Assembly (NCBI GenBank): GCA_030827475.1
Contig: JAUREJ010000002.1
Location: forward strand, 18,027 to 82,026
Source: Poseidonia sp.
GTDB lineage: Archaea; Thermoplasmatota; Poseidoniia; Poseidoniales; Poseidoniaceae
Reading direction: 5' to 3'
DNA length: 64,000 bases
Of the stretch, positions 49,911-58,438 are shown in pieces. A program made the position numbers and the translations under genes. Under the pieces are notes generated by a model. It saw nothing but the letters and a program-made list of their open reading frames with translations. It did no database searches and was not told where the DNA came from. Positions within the stretch are counted from its first letter, which is position 1; every line of letters starts with the position of its first letter.

Positions 49911-50001
49911 TTCGGACGCTTCTGAAAAACGCCCGAGCACGGCGCGTTTTCGGAGAAACGGCTAAGTGCGTGGCTCCAAGGTGGCATCGAGAGCGGAAGC
50001 A

Positions 50002-50784
50002 ATGAAACTGCGATTGCACCAATTCCTCTCCAAGACGGGGCATTTCACCTCCAAACGTGAGGTCAAAGAAGCGATTTGGTCGGGTGAGGTCACGGTCAAC
50101 GGCTCGGTGGTCAAGGACATCGCTTTTCAATTCAATGCGACGAAAAAAGATGTTGCTTTCAGAGGTGAAACGCTTCGTTTGCCGTCCGTGGAGCGGACGT
50201 TTTTGCTCAACAAACCCCGAGGTGTCGTCTGCTCACGTCTGAATTCACAGGAGGCGGCGTTGGGAAAACGTTCGGTGTTTGAGGTCTTTCGCCCTCACGT
50301 CACCCCCAACGAATTTGAACGCCTGGTTTCGGTCGGTCGCCTCGATGAAGACACGACTGGCCTCTTGCTGGTGACGACCAACGGGGATCTGGTTCATCGT
50401 ATCGCCTCTCCAGAAAAGCAGGTGACGAAACGCTACCGCGTGACGACGGCTGCTCCGCTCAATTCGGCTGACGGTGCACGGTTCGCCGAGGGCATCGGCA
50501 TTGAGTTGGAGGTCAATGGCGACATTGAGAGGTATCTCACCCTTCCGGCAGAACTGGTCGTTGAGTCTCCCAACATCGCTTTGGTCAGCGTGACCGAGGG
50601 GAAAAAGCGGCAGGTGCGTCGCATGTTTGCAGCACTTGGCCATGAGGTTATCGCTCTTGAACGGTTGGCGATTGGGGGCTTGAATTTGGCGGCCTTCAAC
50701 GTCAAAGAAGGTGCCTTCGTTGACCTGAGCGATAGGGATGTTGAGGCGTTTGTGCACCAAGACGAAGCAGACAAAAGACCTTGA
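50002..50784 (+). CDS. RsuA-family (RsuA/RluB/E/F) rRNA pseudouridine synthase with S4 domain
   Basis: S4 (RLHQFLS..G..S.RE...I..G.V.VNG), LLNKPRG, GRLDEDTTGLL (catalytic Asp), KRY.V, EGKKRQVRRMF, L.R..IG. Confidence 0.9.
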   Translation: MKLRLHQFLSKTGHFTSKREVKEAIWSGEVTVNGSVVKDIAFQFNATKKDVAFRGETLRLPSVERTFLLNKPRGVVCSRLNSQEAALGKRSVFEVFRPHVTPNEFERLVSVGRLDEDTTGLLLVTTNGDLVHRIASPEKQVTKRYRVTTAAPLNSADGARFAEGIGIELEVNGDIERYLTLPAELVVESPNIALVSVTEGKKRQVRRMFAALGHEVIALERLAIGGLNLAAFNVKEGAFVDLSDRDVEAFVHQDEADKRP

Positions 50785-52002: not shown

Positions 52003-52614
52003 TCACTCCGCTTCAAAGGCGTCCACGACTTCGAGCATTTCGGCGTCCTCGCCGACCATATCTTCAGCGTCCCCGGTGCCCTCGTTTTTGGCTTCCAAAC
52101 CAACAAAGGGGTCGTTGCCGTCTTCGACCATGCAAAGCAATCGCCATCGGGGCGCCCAGGATAGGTGGACGTAGACCGGTCCAGGAAGCAAGAGCAGGGT
52201 CCAAACCAAGAGCGCCGGCATGCCGAGCAAACCGGTTCGGTCAACGGTCAGCAGTGCCAAGCCCAGGAAGGGCATCGGGTAGAGGAACGCACGCGGCGGG
52301 GTGACGGGGTGCCGCTTGGAAAAGGCGACAAGGACCAAGGAAATGAAGCCCAGGAAGGCACAAGCAACGAGCAGGAGCGAGGTGTGATAGAGCCACTGGA
52401 CGGCCCAGACTTCGTTGCCCTCCTCGCCAAATGCATAGGGGAGAAGAAGCGCCAACGCCACGAGCATACCGTAGAAGGCGCCGATGTTGGCAGGATGATT
52501 CAACCAAAGCGGAAGGCGTGCAAAACGCCTGGAGAGCGACGTGCCGAGCAAGGTTTCCTGCTCACTGGAAGCCAATTGCTCAACCTTTGACATCCAAGTT
52601 TCGTTGGTAGGCAC
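52003..52614 (-). CDS. Hypothetical membrane protein (about 4 TM)
   Basis: Hydrophobic helices with acidic tail; closely packed between neighbours. Confidence 0.65.
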   Translation of the reverse strand: MPTNETWMSKVEQLASSEQETLLGTSLSRRFARLPLWLNHPANIGAFYGMLVALALLLPYAFGEEGNEVWAVQWLYHTSLLLVACAFLGFISLVLVAFSKRHPVTPPRAFLYPMPFLGLALLTVDRTGLLGMPALLVWTLLLLPGPVYVHLSWAPRWRLLCMVEDGNDPFVGLEAKNEGTGDAEDMVGEDAEMLEVVDAFEAE

Positions 52615-52671: not shown

Positions 52672-53352
52672 TCATTCTTTCTTCCTAAAAAACGACACCA
52701 GCGGGCTTTCAACCTCCACGCTCTCCTCTTCTTCCAACCAAGAACGCTCGAGCAAACCGGTGTCCATCGCTTCGCGTTCCCGGGCGGCCTCGATGGGGTC
52801 GGGGACATCGTTCACGGCGTCGCGCAGGGCGATGGCTTGGTTGATCAAGGTCAGGTGGCGGGTGAGGGTTGGCGTGCGCTCCTTGGCTTCGCTGAAGTGG
52901 CCGAGAACGGGGAAATCAAATGTGTCATGAGCGAGGTTGAACCCTCCAATCAGTTCGTCGGGGACAAGACGAACCCGGTGTGCACCGGGGTCTCGCCAGG
53001 TTCCGTCGGCAAAGCGAACGAGCAAGGCGGCCTCGCCAAGCGGCTCACCGTCCATGAACGGGTGATTCATGTTCACGGCAAGCGGCGTGGTCACATGTCC
53101 TCGGTAACGAAGCAGCACCACGGTCACGTTCATTCCGGCCACTGCGGCGGCGACGAGGCCGGCGATAGGGGCCGAGAACGCAAACAGGGAAAGCAGAGCA
53201 AAAAGCACGACGGCAAGCCCAGCACTCGCTCCGAGTCCCGCATTGCGCCCGTTGATGAACGGTTGAGCCACCGAGGTTTGGATGAACGGGAGCATGTCAG
53301 GTGGCAGCGCTGAAGATGCTCCACCCATGGTCCCGAGAGGGGAAGCGTCCAC
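52672..53352 (-). CDS. Hypothetical membrane protein (2 TM + soluble acidic C-domain)
   Basis: TM pair LAVVLFALLSLF / LVAAAVAGMNVTVV. Start moved to the GTG just after the DUF309 stop; uncertain. Confidence 0.6.
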   Translation of the reverse strand: MDASPLGTMGGASSALPPDMLPFIQTSVAQPFINGRNAGLGASAGLAVVLFALLSLFAFSAPIAGLVAAAVAGMNVTVVLLRYRGHVTTPLAVNMNHPFMDGEPLGEAALLVRFADGTWRDPGAHRVRLVPDELIGGFNLAHDTFDFPVLGHFSEAKERTPTLTRHLTLINQAIALRDAVNDVPDPIEAAREREAMDTGLLERSWLEEEESVEVESPLVSFFRKKE

Positions 53353-53353
53353 T

Positions 53354-53746
53354 TCAATCCCTCGTTCGAGGGAATTGGTGTTCGGCTGCGACGAGCTTCC
53401 AACTGCCGTTATCTTCTGCATAGTTGGCGATGGTCTCGAGATGAAGGGCGACATCAAGGCCCCATGCAGTGGACCAACCTTCAAGTTTGGAGTGGACCTT
53501 CGTCCACTGTTTCTCGACGCCTGCTTGGTTTCGTCGTTGGTGATGGAGTAACAAGGCTGCAGTTTGAATGAAGCCTTGGACGAGGAGAATCTCCTCGGGC
53601 GGAGCCTGCCGTTGCTTCAGTCGGTTCCACAACGCCTCCCAAGCCTCGTGTGCATGCCAAAATCGGCCTTCGTCAAACAGTGCCAAGCCGTCGTGCAGCT
53701 CCTTTTCTTCGTCACCGTCGAGCGGCCCGGCGCTGAACGGTTCCAT
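53354..53746 (-). CDS. DUF309 family protein
   Basis: G..LF..G.FW.AHE.WE..W and QG.IQ.A...H motifs. The ORF-track N-terminal extension is antisense to the next gene. Confidence 0.85.
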   Translation of the reverse strand: MEPFSAGPLDGDEEKELHDGLALFDEGRFWHAHEAWEALWNRLKQRQAPPEEILLVQGFIQTAALLLHHQRRNQAGVEKQWTKVHSKLEGWSTAWGLDVALHLETIANYAEDNGSWKLVAAEHQFPRTRD

Positions 53747-53823: not shown

Positions 53824-55893
53824 GTGGCGAGGTCGGCAGCGCCGAAGAGCATCCCAAACCAAGGACGAACGGAATCCGGACGCCGCACTCTTCAAGAGGG
53901 GGTTTGGCGAAGAGGGCGTGTAGGGTGCGGACGCGTGGTTGAGTTTGAGCACGGTGATTTGCTGGAGGAACGCCGAGGAGGCGTTGATGTCCTGCGGGTT
54001 TTGGTTCGGAACTTAGCGGTCCACGAACAATCGGGTGCTGTCGAAATCCGAGCATCTGCGGGTGAAGGAGGACGACAAGGGTGGCTCCTGTTTCGGCTTG
54101 GTCATCCCGTCATGGCGTTTCACAACGGTGACGTGGCCTCGGTGGGTCTCAATGCACTCATGGCCATCGAGGACGATGCTCTGAACGTTGACAACGATGT
54201 ACGGTTGTACGAACTCACCATGAACGCTCTGCGAACCACGATGTCCAACCACCCCGAAAGCGTCCTGCATCTCGAGCATCAACCCTCCGAAGGGGATGGG
54301 GATTCATGGTGGTCCTCGGTGCAACTACCAGCGGCCTCCTGGCGAAGAGCTGCCAGGTTGGAGGACATTGAAGAAATCGCACTCTCCTCAGAACATCGCC
54401 GTCGGTCGTCCACAGGCACGACGGACAAGCAGGCGCTTTCCCCCGGAGGCGTGTATCTCCTCGACACCCCAGACCCGCACCCGATGATTCACCTCGCCGT
54501 AGAACTGGCGGAACGAGGGATTCCGGTGTTGGGGTTGTTCGGGCTACCGCATGCATCCACAGAAGTGACCCAACGTTTGCCACGCCCCCAATGCTATGCA
54601 CTTCTCTCTCCACACGGGGGGTATGAGGTGGTGGAGGACCGAGCCTCCCTGCTCGCAACGGTGAACGGATTTCAATGGGGCAACGAACGCAGCGTCCTCG
54701 TCATCGATGGGTTGGATCGGCTTGGGAACGCCTTTGGTGACGATGTGATGCTCAACCTCTTCCGCTCTCTGTGCGACGGAGCACGCTTCAACGACCATGC
54801 CGTGTTGTGCTCAACCGACCTGGAGATGTTTGACACCTCGATTCGCCATGGCCTGCTCAGCGAGTCAACCGAACTCTCTCGTGGCGTTTTGGATGCTTGG
54901 CTTGACGAGCCCGATTTGCTTTGGGATGAACCCTTTTTGCTTGCTCCTGACGAGGAGGAAGAGCAGTGGTTGGCCGCTCAAATTCAACACCAAGGCGCAA
55001 AATTGGGAGCCGGTTCATCGTCGGTTGAGCCCGTCCTTGAAGGCGGGAGTTCTCACGTCGGTGACGAGGCTAGGGCCGAGGCCACCGCAGCCCTCAGCGA
55101 CGTCGTTGAGGGCTGGCAGAACCCCGGCCAACCTCCTGCCTCAGCACGACTTCTCAGCGATGAACTCCAGCCTCCAACGACCATTGGTGCCACGACATGG
55201 CGCCCCCAAACCGAAGCCTCATTCAACGAAGGTCGGTACATCACCGAATCACCTCGCTTCAAAGCAGGTGAGAAAGATGCGGTTCAACCGACCCGGCGCC
55301 GCTCCACACCATCATTAAAGGCACCCACTCCAGCAAGCATTCCCAAAATGCGGAAAGCGCAGCGGCTCCCAAGTCGGAAAAAAAATCCGGGTTTGCCTCA
55401 ACCTGAAGTCAGCGGCCATCAGCGACAGACCGCTGCGCTTGCGCACACGAGTGCATCGCTTCCCCCCTGGCCAGAAAAGCCCCGTCCAACCGATGCCTTC
55501 AGAAAAGAAAACATGGATGCCTTTACCCTTCGTCAAACCGAAGCGGTTGAACGGCAAGGTTCTCGTCATTTGGCGGGGCCTTCGCCCGAACTTCGTGATG
55601 TTGTGGCGGCGTCGCCGAATGTCGATTCGGGAGGTTTTCCCGGCCCCACTTCGTTCCAAACCGTGACCTTGCCGGCGAGCAACAACGGGCAACCGCTCTC
55701 AAGCAGTCTGATGCCCGTTCACCGTGACGAGGCAAAACCTGCACGGGAAACCGCAAGTTACGAGCAAAAAACGCTTGACATGGAGGAGGTTTACCGTGAA
55801 TGGACCACCTACGACGAGAAGGACATGGAGTCAAGTGCTCTTTACAACGAGAAGGGCGAGGCCCTCAAGCGCTACCAAGGTGATGCGTCTTGA
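53824..55893 (+). CDS. Multidomain hypothetical: N-terminal DUF2226/PATAN-like domain, central DUF835 (inactive RecA/KaiC-like) domain, long disordered C-terminus
   Basis: GWLLFRLGHPVMAF (PATAN/DUF4388-like). GVYLL...LVIDGLDRL..AFG.D..L.LFRSL.D......LCSTD matches the DUF835 pattern. Pro/Ser/Arg-rich tail. Confidence 0.6.
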   Translation: MARSAAPKSIPNQGRTESGRRTLQEGVWRRGRVGCGRVVEFEHGDLLEERRGGVDVLRVLVRNLAVHEQSGAVEIRASAGEGGRQGWLLFRLGHPVMAFHNGDVASVGLNALMAIEDDALNVDNDVRLYELTMNALRTTMSNHPESVLHLEHQPSEGDGDSWWSSVQLPAASWRRAARLEDIEEIALSSEHRRRSSTGTTDKQALSPGGVYLLDTPDPHPMIHLAVELAERGIPVLGLFGLPHASTEVTQRLPRPQCYALLSPHGGYEVVEDRASLLATVNGFQWGNERSVLVIDGLDRLGNAFGDDVMLNLFRSLCDGARFNDHAVLCSTDLEMFDTSIRHGLLSESTELSRGVLDAWLDEPDLLWDEPFLLAPDEEEEQWLAAQIQHQGAKLGAGSSSVEPVLEGGSSHVGDEARAEATAALSDVVEGWQNPGQPPASARLLSDELQPPTTIGATTWRPQTEASFNEGRYITESPRFKAGEKDAVQPTRRRSTPSLKAPTPASIPKMRKAQRLPSRKKNPGLPQPEVSGHQRQTAALAHTSASLPPWPEKPRPTDAFRKENMDAFTLRQTEAVERQGSRHLAGPSPELRDVVAASPNVDSGGFPGPTSFQTVTLPASNNGQPLSSSLMPVHRDEAKPARETASYEQKTLDMEEVYREWTTYDEKDMESSALYNEKGEALKRYQGDAS

Positions 55894-57977
55894 GCACGCC
55901 GACGAAACTGCGCTCGGTGCTCGACGACGCCAAGCGACACCTCGGTGATCATGGAGTTTCTCCTGCCCCTTCAGCGGGCGTATCGCCGCACCACAGCGAG
56001 GGAACGAACCATGAACCTGCTCGGTCGAAGTTGAACACCCTTCGTGGCGTCACATCGGTTGAACAGCGCCCTCTCTCGGTGTTTCAGCGCGTCGGGGTCC
56101 CTCAACGACCAACGTATGACCTCATCGCCGAACGTGTCCTCGGACCGAATGTCCCCCAACACCGGAATTTTCTCGAGGAGGGGTCAACCTATGCCGACCA
56201 CGTCGCTCAGCGTTTACGTCAATTGCAACAGCGACTCAATTCACAACCTGTTGACGAAAACGACCACGGGGTCCCATCCGCTTACATCGGGGTTGAAGAT
56301 GACGGGCGGCCCGTTTGGAGCCAAGTTTTGGAACAACAACGCGGTCGAGCATCGTACGCCCTGCATGGCCTCAGCGACACCGAGGATTCATCTCCATCGG
56401 CCCACGTCTCGGCCCTTAAGCGCGGTCCGATTCCCGATTTTCCTTCTCGCTTAGCGTGGTCCAACGAACGGACCTTCAAACGGTGGTTCGTCGCTGAAGA
56501 GAATTTCGATGCCACGCGCCTGTGCGAAGCGGTTGTGGATGCGCCCGGTCAACGATTCAACCCGCTTTTCCTTCAGGGCGATGCCTCGTCCGGAATCTCG
56601 CTCCTGCTCCATGCCACCGGTCAAGCACTGTTGCGTCGCAACGAAGGCCATGTTCTCGCTGTCTCGGCAGCCGACCTTCACGGTGTGGACCCGACGGGTG
56701 CACACTGGCAGGAAGCCTTGCCGGGAGCAACAGCGCTGATGGTTGATGACCTTCATCTGTTTGCAACCGAGGAACATTGGAAACATCAGATGGGCGTGCT
56801 GATTGACAGAGCATTGAATCTTGGAGTTCACGTGGTGGTGGGCTGTCGCTTACCCCTTGATGCCCTTCCTTCCTCCCGCTTGAAGGAGGTCTTGCTTCAA
56901 GCCACCGTTGCCTCCCTGTTGCCTCCTTCTGTTGGAACGATGATGGCGTACGCACGGTGGCGCTGTGCGCAAAAGAATCTGCTCCTTGCAGACCCTCATC
57001 TCGCCCAAATCGCAAGGGAGTACCCGGCCGGGTGGGCAGCTGTCGACGGTCGCCTCGAGCGGGTCGCCCTCGCTTTGGAAAACGGCGGTGTTCTGCTGGA
57101 GCAAGACGATTTGACAACCTTCCTCCAAGGAGGTCCATCAACGACCTCGAACGCTCTTGAAAGCAAGCGGATTGAAGACGTCGCCGCCTCTATGGTCGGT
57201 GAAGTGCTCGACAGCGTCTACTCAAGCGTTCAACCCGGCGGAATTGACCTGCGTGCGAACGTGGAGCCGTGGGAGGACGACGATTACCTTCCTCCTTCGT
57301 TTGATGAGGACCTCACTGCGGCGGCCCACACGGCGAGGTTTGAGCAAAATGTGCGCGAGACCATCGAACACATCACCCCCGGTCGACCATCGGTGCTGGA
57401 CGTTCACGAGCGAGAGAAGTATTTGATCTCCAACCGGGAACCCTTGAATTTCGAAGACGTCGAACGTGCGGTTGATGTGCTGATCGATCTCGATGAAGAG
57501 ATAGAGTCCCGTCTGGTGCGGACCGAGCAATCCGCCGCTGCGACATCCAACGAACTGAACCGTCTGGAAGACCAGATGGTGATGCTGGGACAACGGGCCT
57601 TGGAAGCGGACATCGATGAACTCATCACCATCGCAGATGAGTTGCGAAGCATCGAAGAACGTCTCGTTGAACTCGACCCTGAACGAGGACCTCTGCCGCC
57701 GTTTGAAGCCCTTGAACCGGCCAACGCCCGACGGAAGGTTGGCCGACGTCGCTCCCCCCTACGCAATCTTGACGCTGAGCTGGCCTCGGAAACGGAAGTT
57801 GGAACAGCATCCAACCCTGCCTCTTCGTTTGATTCCTACGAACCCGAAGGCGAATGGAACGTTGACGAGGTTGGTATTTCTGCGACCGACCTTCTCAACG
57901 AAGAGGATAAGCCTCGCTCCCCGGTACGTCTCTCCAGAATCACTCCACGAACCGTCTTGGTTGGTGAAGAGGAATGA
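55890..57977 (+). CDS. DnaA/Hda-like AAA+ domain protein with degenerate Walker A, acidic coiled-coil C-terminus, no DnaA domain IV
   Basis: TF..W.V...N, FNPLFLQGDASSGISLLLHA.G, LMVDDLH, then LLPP, following the bacterial DnaA domain III order. TTG start overlaps the upstream TGA; AAGGTGA SD. Confidence 0.75.
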   Translation: MSTPTKLRSVLDDAKRHLGDHGVSPAPSAGVSPHHSEGTNHEPARSKLNTLRGVTSVEQRPLSVFQRVGVPQRPTYDLIAERVLGPNVPQHRNFLEEGSTYADHVAQRLRQLQQRLNSQPVDENDHGVPSAYIGVEDDGRPVWSQVLEQQRGRASYALHGLSDTEDSSPSAHVSALKRGPIPDFPSRLAWSNERTFKRWFVAEENFDATRLCEAVVDAPGQRFNPLFLQGDASSGISLLLHATGQALLRRNEGHVLAVSAADLHGVDPTGAHWQEALPGATALMVDDLHLFATEEHWKHQMGVLIDRALNLGVHVVVGCRLPLDALPSSRLKEVLLQATVASLLPPSVGTMMAYARWRCAQKNLLLADPHLAQIAREYPAGWAAVDGRLERVALALENGGVLLEQDDLTTFLQGGPSTTSNALESKRIEDVAASMVGEVLDSVYSSVQPGGIDLRANVEPWEDDDYLPPSFDEDLTAAAHTARFEQNVRETIEHITPGRPSVLDVHEREKYLISNREPLNFEDVERAVDVLIDLDEEIESRLVRTEQSAAATSNELNRLEDQMVMLGQRALEADIDELITIADELRSIEERLVELDPERGPLPPFEALEPANARRKVGRRRSPLRNLDAELASETEVGTASNPASSFDSYEPEGEWNVDEVGISATDLLNEEDKPRSPVRLSRITPRTVLVGEEE

Positions 57978-58438
57978 GGGCACCGTGGTGGATGGAGGGC
58001 GTTGCTTTCCAATGCCAGCCAAATTGTGGACGATGCTGCGACCAACCAGGCGGTATCGTTTACCTCTCACCCGATGATGCTGAGCGACTCGCCGAGCATG
58101 CCGGCCTAGACGTTGGTTCGTGGTTGGAACGTGACACTCGGAAAACCTTTGACGGCCGTTACGTGCTCAAAAGTCGCGAGGAGGATGGGGTTTGCATTCA
58201 TTTGAACGAACACAAGCAATGCTCAATCTACGACGTTCGACCCCAACAATGCAAGGCCTTCCCGTGGTGGGGGGAGAACCTCGTAACACCCGCGGCATGG
58301 GACAAAACCAAGGCCGCATGTCCGGGGATCGATGCTGAAAACGCCATCGTGGTGGACGGGCAAACCATCCGTCTCCATGTGTTCGCCGACCGAACCTCAA
58401 CCAAAGGCTTCAGAACGTGGCCGGTTGAAAAAAGATGA
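57974..58438 (+). CDS. YkgJ-family (CxxCxxCC) cysteine-cluster protein
   Basis: CQPNCGRCC, CIHL, CSIY..RP.QC..FPWW, CPG; ATGA overlap with the upstream gene. Confidence 0.9.
   Translation: MRAPWWMEGVAFQCQPNCGRCCDQPGGIVYLSPDDAERLAEHAGLDVGSWLERDTRKTFDGRYVLKSREEDGVCIHLNEHKQCSIYDVRPQQCKAFPWWGENLVTPAAWDKTKAACPGIDAENAIVVDGQTIRLHVFADRTSTKGFRTWPVEKR

Follow-up and report, generated by a model that had tools for sequence, protein, structure and literature searches.

A DnaA/Hda-type AAA+ protein with a degenerate ATPase site and its DUF835 partner in Poseidoniales

A DnaA-type domain at a Poseidonia locus

The stretch of DNA considered here (the window; 64,000 nucleotides from contig JAUREJ010000002.1 of the Poseidonia sp. 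assembly GCA_030827475.1, positions 18,027 to 82,026 of the forward strand) encodes a DnaA-like protein of the archaeal order Poseidoniales, whose gene lies directly downstream of a partner gene encoding an N-terminal alpha/beta domain (here N-domain) and a DUF835-like domain (Table 1). The TTG start of the DnaA-like gene overlaps the stop of its partner by 4 nucleotides (TTGA), and its own stop overlaps the ATG of the next open reading frame (ORF) downstream (ATGA). In bacteria, DnaA is viewed as the initiator of replication, a task for which archaea rely on Orc1/Cdc6. An original prediction, made from the sequence alone, had placed a bacterial-type DnaA domain III at 56460-57080, which corresponds to residues 191-397 of the plus-strand ORF at 55890-57977. 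Profile and fold matches both bear this out, and homologues of the protein come from Poseidonia and Poseidoniales metagenome-assembled genomes (MAGs).

Bacterial DnaA domain III emerges as the best match to this part of the protein by sequence profile as well as by fold. The Pfam family Bac_DnaA (PF00308) matches residues 194-319 with 30.5 bits and an E value of 4.8e-7 (cut-off, 23 bits) and is the sole significant family in 10/10 orthologues from other genera (28-61 bits). The TIGR00362 DnaA model matches residues 187-395 with 46.7 bits, far under its equivalog cut-off of 343.9, and the TIGR03420 Hda model gives 33.4 bits, which does not reach its equivalog cut-off of 194.8. Pfam searches of the DnaA-like protein gave no match to DnaA_N (domain I, PF11638) or to the IstB, Cdc6_C, and ORC profiles, and IstB_IS21 matched neither the window protein nor the 10 orthologues. 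The absence of domain IV, as originally predicted, is reflected in the lack of a Bac_DnaA_C (PF08299) match at E <= 1, and a separate search of the C-terminal 295 residues also returned no match.

In a six-frame genome search, Bac_DnaA also exceeded its cut-off in Methanocaldococcus jannaschii, Haloferax volcanii, and Methanosarcina acetivorans, so that passing the Pfam cut-off is in itself insufficient evidence. A profile built from 24 family members and searched against all solved-structure sequences retrieved DnaA chains only (B. subtilis 8btg with an E value of 3.5e-12, Thermotoga and Aquifex DnaA at approximately 5e-4), with a match extending over base and lid of domain III, and none of the Orc, Cdc6, RFC, or IstB chains appeared even at E <= 1. 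The AlphaFold 2 (AF2) model is confident at residues 200-400 (predicted local distance difference test score [pLDDT], 80-92), and the best 16 Foldseek matches are DnaA domain III or Hda structures with target-normalized TM-scores of 0.79-0.80, followed by generic AAA+ proteins. E. coli DnaC was included in a maximum-likelihood tree built from 72 domains and came out as its most distant row. The window protein carries an AAA+ domain III of the DnaA clade, and not one of Cdc6 or IstB; a better match to either of the latter, which would have spoken against the original assignment, was seen neither in Pfam nor in the solved-structure profile search nor in the tree.

With the domain III of bacterial DnaA (B. 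subtilis 8bv3/8btg, T. maritima 2z4r, A. aeolicus 1l8q/2hcb/3r8f), the protein shares the same AAA+ base-plus-lid fold, the segment preceding the P-loop (TF..W.V..eN..A...., NPL), the "HLLHA" helix, the Walker B Asp-Asp pair, and the first arginine of box VII. Unlike DnaA, it is missing domains I, II, and IV, has no arginine finger and a shorter initiator-specific motif, has lost the Walker A lysine in the clade to which the window protein belongs, and is hosted by an archaeon with Orc1/Cdc6. Its likeness to Hda (E. coli; Shewanella 3bos, 5x06) consists of the presence of domain III only, the truncated initiator-specific motif, a target-normalized TM-score of 0.80, and a GxGRS P-loop in some sister genera. 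In contrast to Hda, it has additional regions at both termini and approximately 450 more residues, is accompanied by a DUF835 partner, and has neither an arginine finger nor a clamp-binding N terminus.

Outside the AAA+ domain, neither the N-terminal 189 residues nor the C-terminal 295 residues have relatives in Pfam or among other DnaA domain III proteins of Thermoplasmatota. The N-terminal region has low pLDDT and a mostly unpredicted fold in the AF2 model. Where DnaA has domain IV, the model of the C-terminal part consists of a coiled coil and disorder, and the acidic coiled coil originally proposed at about 57450-57700 is recovered there as a helical hairpin. At the C terminus, most of the loci examined across Poseidoniales show hydrophobic residues and then an acidic end.

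Table 1. Coordinates of the gene pair, its domains and motifs, and the adjoining downstream gene in the window
Feature	Coordinates	Strand	Basis or remark
Partner gene (P0002 family)	53935..55893	+	~652 amino acids from the start backed by orthologues
Partner N-domain, residues 1-112	53935..54270	+	Common to the N terminus of the L019 single-chain protein
Partner DUF835-like (iKaiC) domain, without P-loop	54412..54969	+	Order-wide hidden Markov model and AF2
DnaA-like gene	55890..57977	+	ORF of 695 amino acids
N-terminal family-specific region, residues 1-189	55890..56456	+	Family alignment; motifs SKLNTL, RPTYD, and DGRPVW conserved
DnaA/Hda-type AAA+ domain III (base plus lid), residues 190-400	56457..57089	+	Profile, fold, pLDDT, dN/dS
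Degenerate Walker A GDASSGIS, Lys to Ile	56577..56600	+	Direct read and comparison across genera
Walker B Asp-Asp (D286, D287), retained	56745..56750	+	Invariant in family alignment; nearly universal in the order
R330, aligned with first box VII Arg (E. coli R281)	56877..56879	+	Profile alignment
Coiled-coil hairpin, residues 521-595	57450..57674	+	AF2 helices 521-572 and 575-595, pLDDT 80-88
Conserved C-terminal tail VLVGEEE	57954..57974	+	G692 and E693 invariant in family alignment
Downstream CxxCxxCC gene (YkgJ-type Zn/Fe-chelating)	57974..58438	+	PF03692, 44 bits

Loss of the ATPase motifs in one clade

Read directly, the codons of the P-loop in the window (GGC GAT GCC TCG TCC GGA ATC TCG) translate to G D A S S G I S, as the original prediction had it, with isoleucine in the place of the Walker A lysine. 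In the same protein, the "TSD" of DnaA at sensor 1 is replaced by "GCR," and the sensor 2 arginine by alanine. Box VII is divergent, again in accordance with the original prediction: profile alignment to B. subtilis DnaA places the conserved arginine of "SRLKEV" at E. coli R281, and this first arginine is kept, while the arginine-finger position (E. coli R285), four residues after R330, is occupied by valine (E. coli residue numbers are taken from an alignment of the E. coli dnaA and hda genes). No family member has an arginine at the R285-equivalent position in the motif table or the alignments. The initiator-specific motif is 6-8 residues shorter than that of DnaA; E. coli Hda is without 11 residues. 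Retained features include the Walker B aspartates and, in the P-loop, G235 and S237, which are invariant in the family alignment.

Archaeal orthologues that keep the lysine do exist. In our motif table, which covers 23 loci across three Poseidoniales families, the canonical Walker A motif GxxGxGK[ST] is retained in most genera, and a few genera display GxxxxGRS, which is also the form found in E. coli Hda. The ancestral protein was most likely ATP binding, since most genera retain Walker A (as GK[ST] or GRS), Walker B, and a sensor-1-like Thr/Ser. Absence of the lysine, which is replaced by Cys, Ile, or Thr, is restricted to a single clade, that of the window protein. This clade is also without the sensor-1 Thr/Ser ("TS" having become "GG" or "GC"), and its genome-derived members (L032 and L033) belong to the genus of the window. 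In the tree of 72 domains, the lysine-less proteins form one clade with 100/100 support, nested within a Poseidoniales clade with 100/99 support, which fits a single loss of the Walker A lysine as a derived event in the lineage of the window protein.

The ratio of nonsynonymous to synonymous substitution rates (dN/dS) of the DnaA-like gene was calculated against four relatives; it amounts to 0.09-0.14 overall, with the AAA+ region showing the lowest values (0.06-0.11). The dead domain is still under strong purifying selection, and the gene is not decaying. Judging by its motifs, the window protein is a putative pseudo-ATPase, because the ATP site appears dismantled while the domain has stayed the most constrained part of the protein; the same motifs suggest a loss of nucleotide binding. 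The repurposed pseudo-ATPase of the original prediction thus stands as far as its dead site and a likely role other than initiation are concerned, with the qualification that the lysine was lost only in the clade of the window and not throughout the family.

The partner gene and related proteins in other lineages

Homologues of the partner begin at residue 38 of the long ORF. In the protein that starts there, the N-terminal alpha/beta domain precedes DUF835, and a long disordered region of basic character and a conserved "ALYNEKGEALKRY" motif at the C terminus complete the chain. PF05763 DUF835 is matched by 7/16 members of the partner family (best E value, 2.1e-5). The window's own copy, searched alone, gave no Pfam match, with DUF835 remaining under threshold, and its AF2 model shows weak matches to RecA-like folds. 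DUF835 has been listed as an inactivated-KaiC (iKaiC) output domain of archaeal response regulators (PMC5847659). The N-domain resembles a PATAN domain by eye only. Pfam returned no match to PatA_N (PF14332) at E <= 5, HMMER comparison with two bacterial PatA_N proteins yielded a nonsignificant score of approximately 1-2 bits per domain, and hhalign placed the N-domain in register with bacterial PatA_N at an E value of 0.017 and a probability of 2.7%, which is likewise nonsignificant. We therefore do not assign a PATAN identity and regard the resemblance as a lead.

The partner gene, to which the original prediction made no reference, is located directly upstream of the DnaA-like gene, on the same strand, in 23/23 Poseidoniales loci. 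The two genes share one distribution, being present in the same 15 of 22 genera and both absent from streamlined genera. At the genome level, 98 of 151 Poseidoniales genomes contain the DnaA-like gene, with one copy per genome. It is present in every genus of the window's family and in the larger-genome genera of the sister family, and is missing from seven genera, among them streamlined ones with genomes of 1.3-1.6 Mb, as well as from the sister family of the class. We identified 83 full-length homologues of approximately 660-690 amino acids, some of which carry the NCBI name "DnaA/Hda family protein [Poseidoniales / Poseidonia sp.]." In the literature searched on DnaA in Marine Group II, Thermoplasmatota, or archaea, and in that on DUF835, we found no account of this family. 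A link to the archaellum was considered and rejected, as three genera (g10, g11, g19) have the gene without archaellin (PF01917) and two (g17, g22) have archaellin without the gene.

A bacterial-type DnaA domain in an archaeon, which the original prediction presented as an anomaly of this locus, is indeed present but does not stand alone. A phylum-wide search with the family profile showed that many Thermoplasmatota outside Poseidoniales match its DnaA domain III part, and the four such proteins that were checked contain an intact Bac_DnaA domain (192-221 bits) and no domain IV. One of them, a protein of 611 amino acids at locus L019, comprises the N-domain, DnaA domain III (Bac_DnaA, 192 bits), and DUF835 in a single chain. 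The literature searched contained no description of such a protein. Order-wide hidden Markov models (HMMs) of the partner's domains score 33.4 bits on L019 residues 33-132 for the N-domain and 81 bits on residues 463-609 for DUF835. Such single-domain models were required for a clear result, the complete partner alignment having given only a weak DUF835 match (probability, 31%) when set against the fusion protein. Since this one chain contains the modules of the Poseidoniales gene pair, it provides the strongest evidence that the products of the two genes work together. The Poseidoniales proteins share with it the three modules, a Thermoplasmatota host, and the lack of domain IV. They differ in that the modules are spread over two genes, with the DnaA module outside the N-domain/DUF835 protein, in their dead ATP site, in a more divergent AAA+ domain (30 versus 192 bits for Bac_DnaA), and in the added coiled coil and long disordered regions. 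The strict pairing with a predicted inactivated KaiC domain, together with the one-chain version elsewhere, points to a two-protein module that appears unstudied and is undescribed in the literature we found.

Other proteins of the phylum show further arrangements. A DnaA domain III protein of approximately 1212 amino acids ends in zinc ribbons. Two proteins of approximately 415 amino acids (L016:1575-2834, minus strand; L017:5077-6321, plus strand) carry at the N terminus an "MGLFDWFKKG" segment that may be an amphipathic membrane anchor, together with a coiled coil and a DnaA domain III that is fully intact and has both box VII arginines, and in both loci the gene for an RDD-family membrane protein follows. 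Two genes for small GTPases of the Ras family and one zinc-ribbon gene come after the gene of the single-chain protein (L019:2232-4853, minus strand).

Searched against 1.84 billion representative proteins, the family profile returned 62 matches below 1e-30, comprising the Poseidoniales family and its fragments. The next matches were tandem Bac_DnaA proteins of approximately 585-656 amino acids (E values of 1e-27 to 1e-17), with true bacterial DnaA (domains N, III, and IV) following at approximately 1e-16. Like the Poseidoniales proteins, these bacterial tandem proteins have no domain IV and are paired with a partner. The N-terminal domain of that partner is of the PATAN type, to which the Poseidoniales N-domain shows no significant similarity; the bacterial proteins further differ in having two intact DnaA domain III copies and a partner with TPR repeats instead of DUF835. 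The tree does not settle where the Poseidoniales clade belongs among bacterial DnaA, tandem DnaA domain III, and Thermoplasmatota DnaA domain III proteins. In bacteria, six tandem proteins (P0226, P0228, P0235, P0236, P0245, and P0256; approximately 520-656 amino acids) were found to be without domain IV, and in 3/3 loci checked (including L121:1774-5213 and L122:1717-4910), the tandem gene is followed by a gene encoding PatA_N (PATAN) plus TPR, which looks like an undescribed two-gene module. One of these tandem loci, from a WOR-3 bacterium, adjoins parB.

Interpretation and neighboring genes

On balance, we think it probable that the DnaA-like protein belongs, as the DnaA-derived subunit, to a two-protein module conserved in Poseidoniales, in which the ancestral form acted as an ATP-gated assembly switch and the form found in the window clade acts as a nucleotide-independent scaffold. 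The protein would be made together with the upstream N-domain plus DUF835 protein through the 4-nucleotide overlap, and would most likely bind this partner, given that L019 combines the same three modules in a single chain. Its DnaA-type domain would mediate self-assembly or assembly with the partner, in a manner gated by nucleotide ancestrally and constitutive in the window clade, and the coiled coil, short linear motifs, and tails may recruit other factors. The resulting complex would be one of signaling or scaffolding and not a replication initiator. What the analysis shows directly is homology, the state of the motifs, linkage, co-occurrence, and selection; the physical interaction, the oligomerization, and the cellular process are what we infer from these observations, as the original prediction had itself inferred the oligomerizing character of the protein.

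Several points weigh against this. The interaction with the partner is deduced from gene order, co-occurrence, and one type of fusion, and adjacency alone is weak evidence when the whole neighborhood is syntenic within the order. The tree leaves the descent of the Poseidoniales clade from the fusion family without resolution. The predicted nucleotide independence has to be reconciled with a Walker B motif and P-loop glycine and serine that are still present, and neither a model nor an assignment was obtained for the first 190 residues or for a large share of the C-terminal half.

An alternative that we find unlikely is a role linked to replication, in which the protein serves as an Hda-like regulator, or as an accessory contacting Orc1/Cdc6 or single-stranded DNA, and controls origin firing. 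Membership in the DnaA/Hda clade would suit such a role, as would the Hda-like traits (no domain IV, a shortened initiator-specific motif, and a GxGRS Walker A in some genera) and the wide retention of the box VII arginine aligned with E. coli R281, a residue that in DnaA contributes to oligomer stability. Yet no member has the arginine finger on which Hda depends, no PCNA-binding motif is seen by eye at either terminus, the basic residues after Walker B are not conserved, and the constant partner contains a signaling-type iKaiC domain. The genomic context argues in the same direction. The genome to which the window belongs carries two Orc1/Cdc6 genes, on contigs other than that of the window. 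In the closed genome G003, the DnaA-like gene lies at 1.52 Mb and the orc1/cdc6 genes at 0.70 and 1.83 Mb, at least 300 kb apart, and on this basis we rejected a linkage to the origin. Seven genera are without the gene, and the closed streamlined genome G027 retains two orc1/cdc6 genes while having no DnaA-like gene pair. Because the protein has no domain I or IV, its gene is distant from orc1/cdc6 in G003, and G027 dispenses with it while keeping Orc1/Cdc6, a role other than initiation is likely. There is similarly little to recommend a working NTPase, in which the noncanonical P-loop would bind nucleotide with the help of another basic residue or of the partner. The Walker B aspartates, the invariant G235 and S237, and the position of the AAA+ region as the most constrained part of the protein are compatible with it, and the Lys-to-Arg variants in sister genera resemble Hda, which binds ADP. 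Several sites have, however, degenerated together in the clade (the Walker A lysine and sensor 1, plus sensor 2 in the window), the differing replacements of the lysine by Cys, Ile, and Thr fit relaxed constraint at that position, and the arginine finger occurs in no member.

That the locus represents a helper ATPase of a mobile element or defense system, of the IstB/DnaC-like or STAND-like kind, seems to us very improbable. A weak match to nSTAND_NTPase5 was observed, at 14.8 bits well below its cut-off of 34, but neither protein has an IstB match, and the absence of PADLOC matches for either led us to reject a defense system. In addition, the gene occurs in one copy per genome at a chromosomal position that does not change across the order and has housekeeping genes (aminotransferase, citrate synthase) on either side. 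We see next to no chance of an artefact, be it a chimeric or contaminated contig or the decaying product of a recent horizontal arrival from bacteria. The nearest nonarchaeal relatives are bacterial tandem DnaA domain III proteins, and two related contigs (L058 and L094), which carry the Poseidoniales gene, are filed under bacterial bins, namely Verrucomicrobiales ARS100 and Phycisphaerae MED703; these are probably mis-binned archaeal contigs. All other listed carrier contigs are filed as archaeal, under Poseidonia, Poseidoniaceae, or Poseidoniales MAGs or broader archaeal labels. The contig is not chimeric, since its G+C is even throughout and the neighborhood is syntenic, in the same gene order, in 23/23 loci across three families, including one closed genome. 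The single Poseidoniales clade at 100/99 support, the intact reading frame, and the dN/dS of approximately 0.1 also contradict an artefact, which synteny and selection together refute.

A bolder reading than the conserved two-protein module, and one in which we place little confidence, is that ATPases reduced to DnaA domain III, combined with a PATAN-like domain, constitute an old undescribed assembly machine of both bacteria and archaea. Its bacterial form would be tandem DnaA domain III plus PatA_N-TPR and its Thermoplasmatota form N-domain/DnaA domain III/DUF835. In the highly abundant marine Poseidoniales, its site of action might still be the chromosome, where a DnaA-type filament could, for instance, work with or gate Orc1/Cdc6, and the Poseidonia clade would have turned the ATP switch into a permanent scaffold.

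Few archaeal groups are as abundant in the surface ocean as Marine Group II, and a DnaA ATPase core without the DNA-reading domain is a conserved chromosomal gene in most of its genera. Within one family, an ATP-binding AAA+ protein appears to be captured in the course of becoming a pseudo-ATPase, which offers a natural comparison between lysine-bearing and lysine-less members that bears on the role of the nucleotide in this module. The NCBI label "DnaA/Hda family protein" could also mislead predictions of replication origins in archaeal MAGs.

The CxxCxxCC gene adjoins the DnaA-like gene in 23/23 loci. Whether it is part of the unit is uncertain, because most loci of the other two families (f2, f3) have it in inverted orientation and because synteny across the order extends to the entire region, citrate synthase included. 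On the other side, divergent from the partner gene, are a DUF309 gene and two genes without a Pfam match (53354-53746, 52672-53328, and 52003-52614 in the window, respectively, all on the minus strand). The latter two are syntenic in most of the Poseidoniales loci examined, and the DUF309 gene in about half. Approximately 3 kb upstream of the gene pair, the window encodes a pseudouridine synthase with S4 and PseudoU_synth_2 domains (49966-50784, plus strand). A gene of this S4 plus PseudoU_synth_2 type is also located directly upstream of the bacterial tandem DnaA domain III gene in 2/3 loci, which may be a coincidence.

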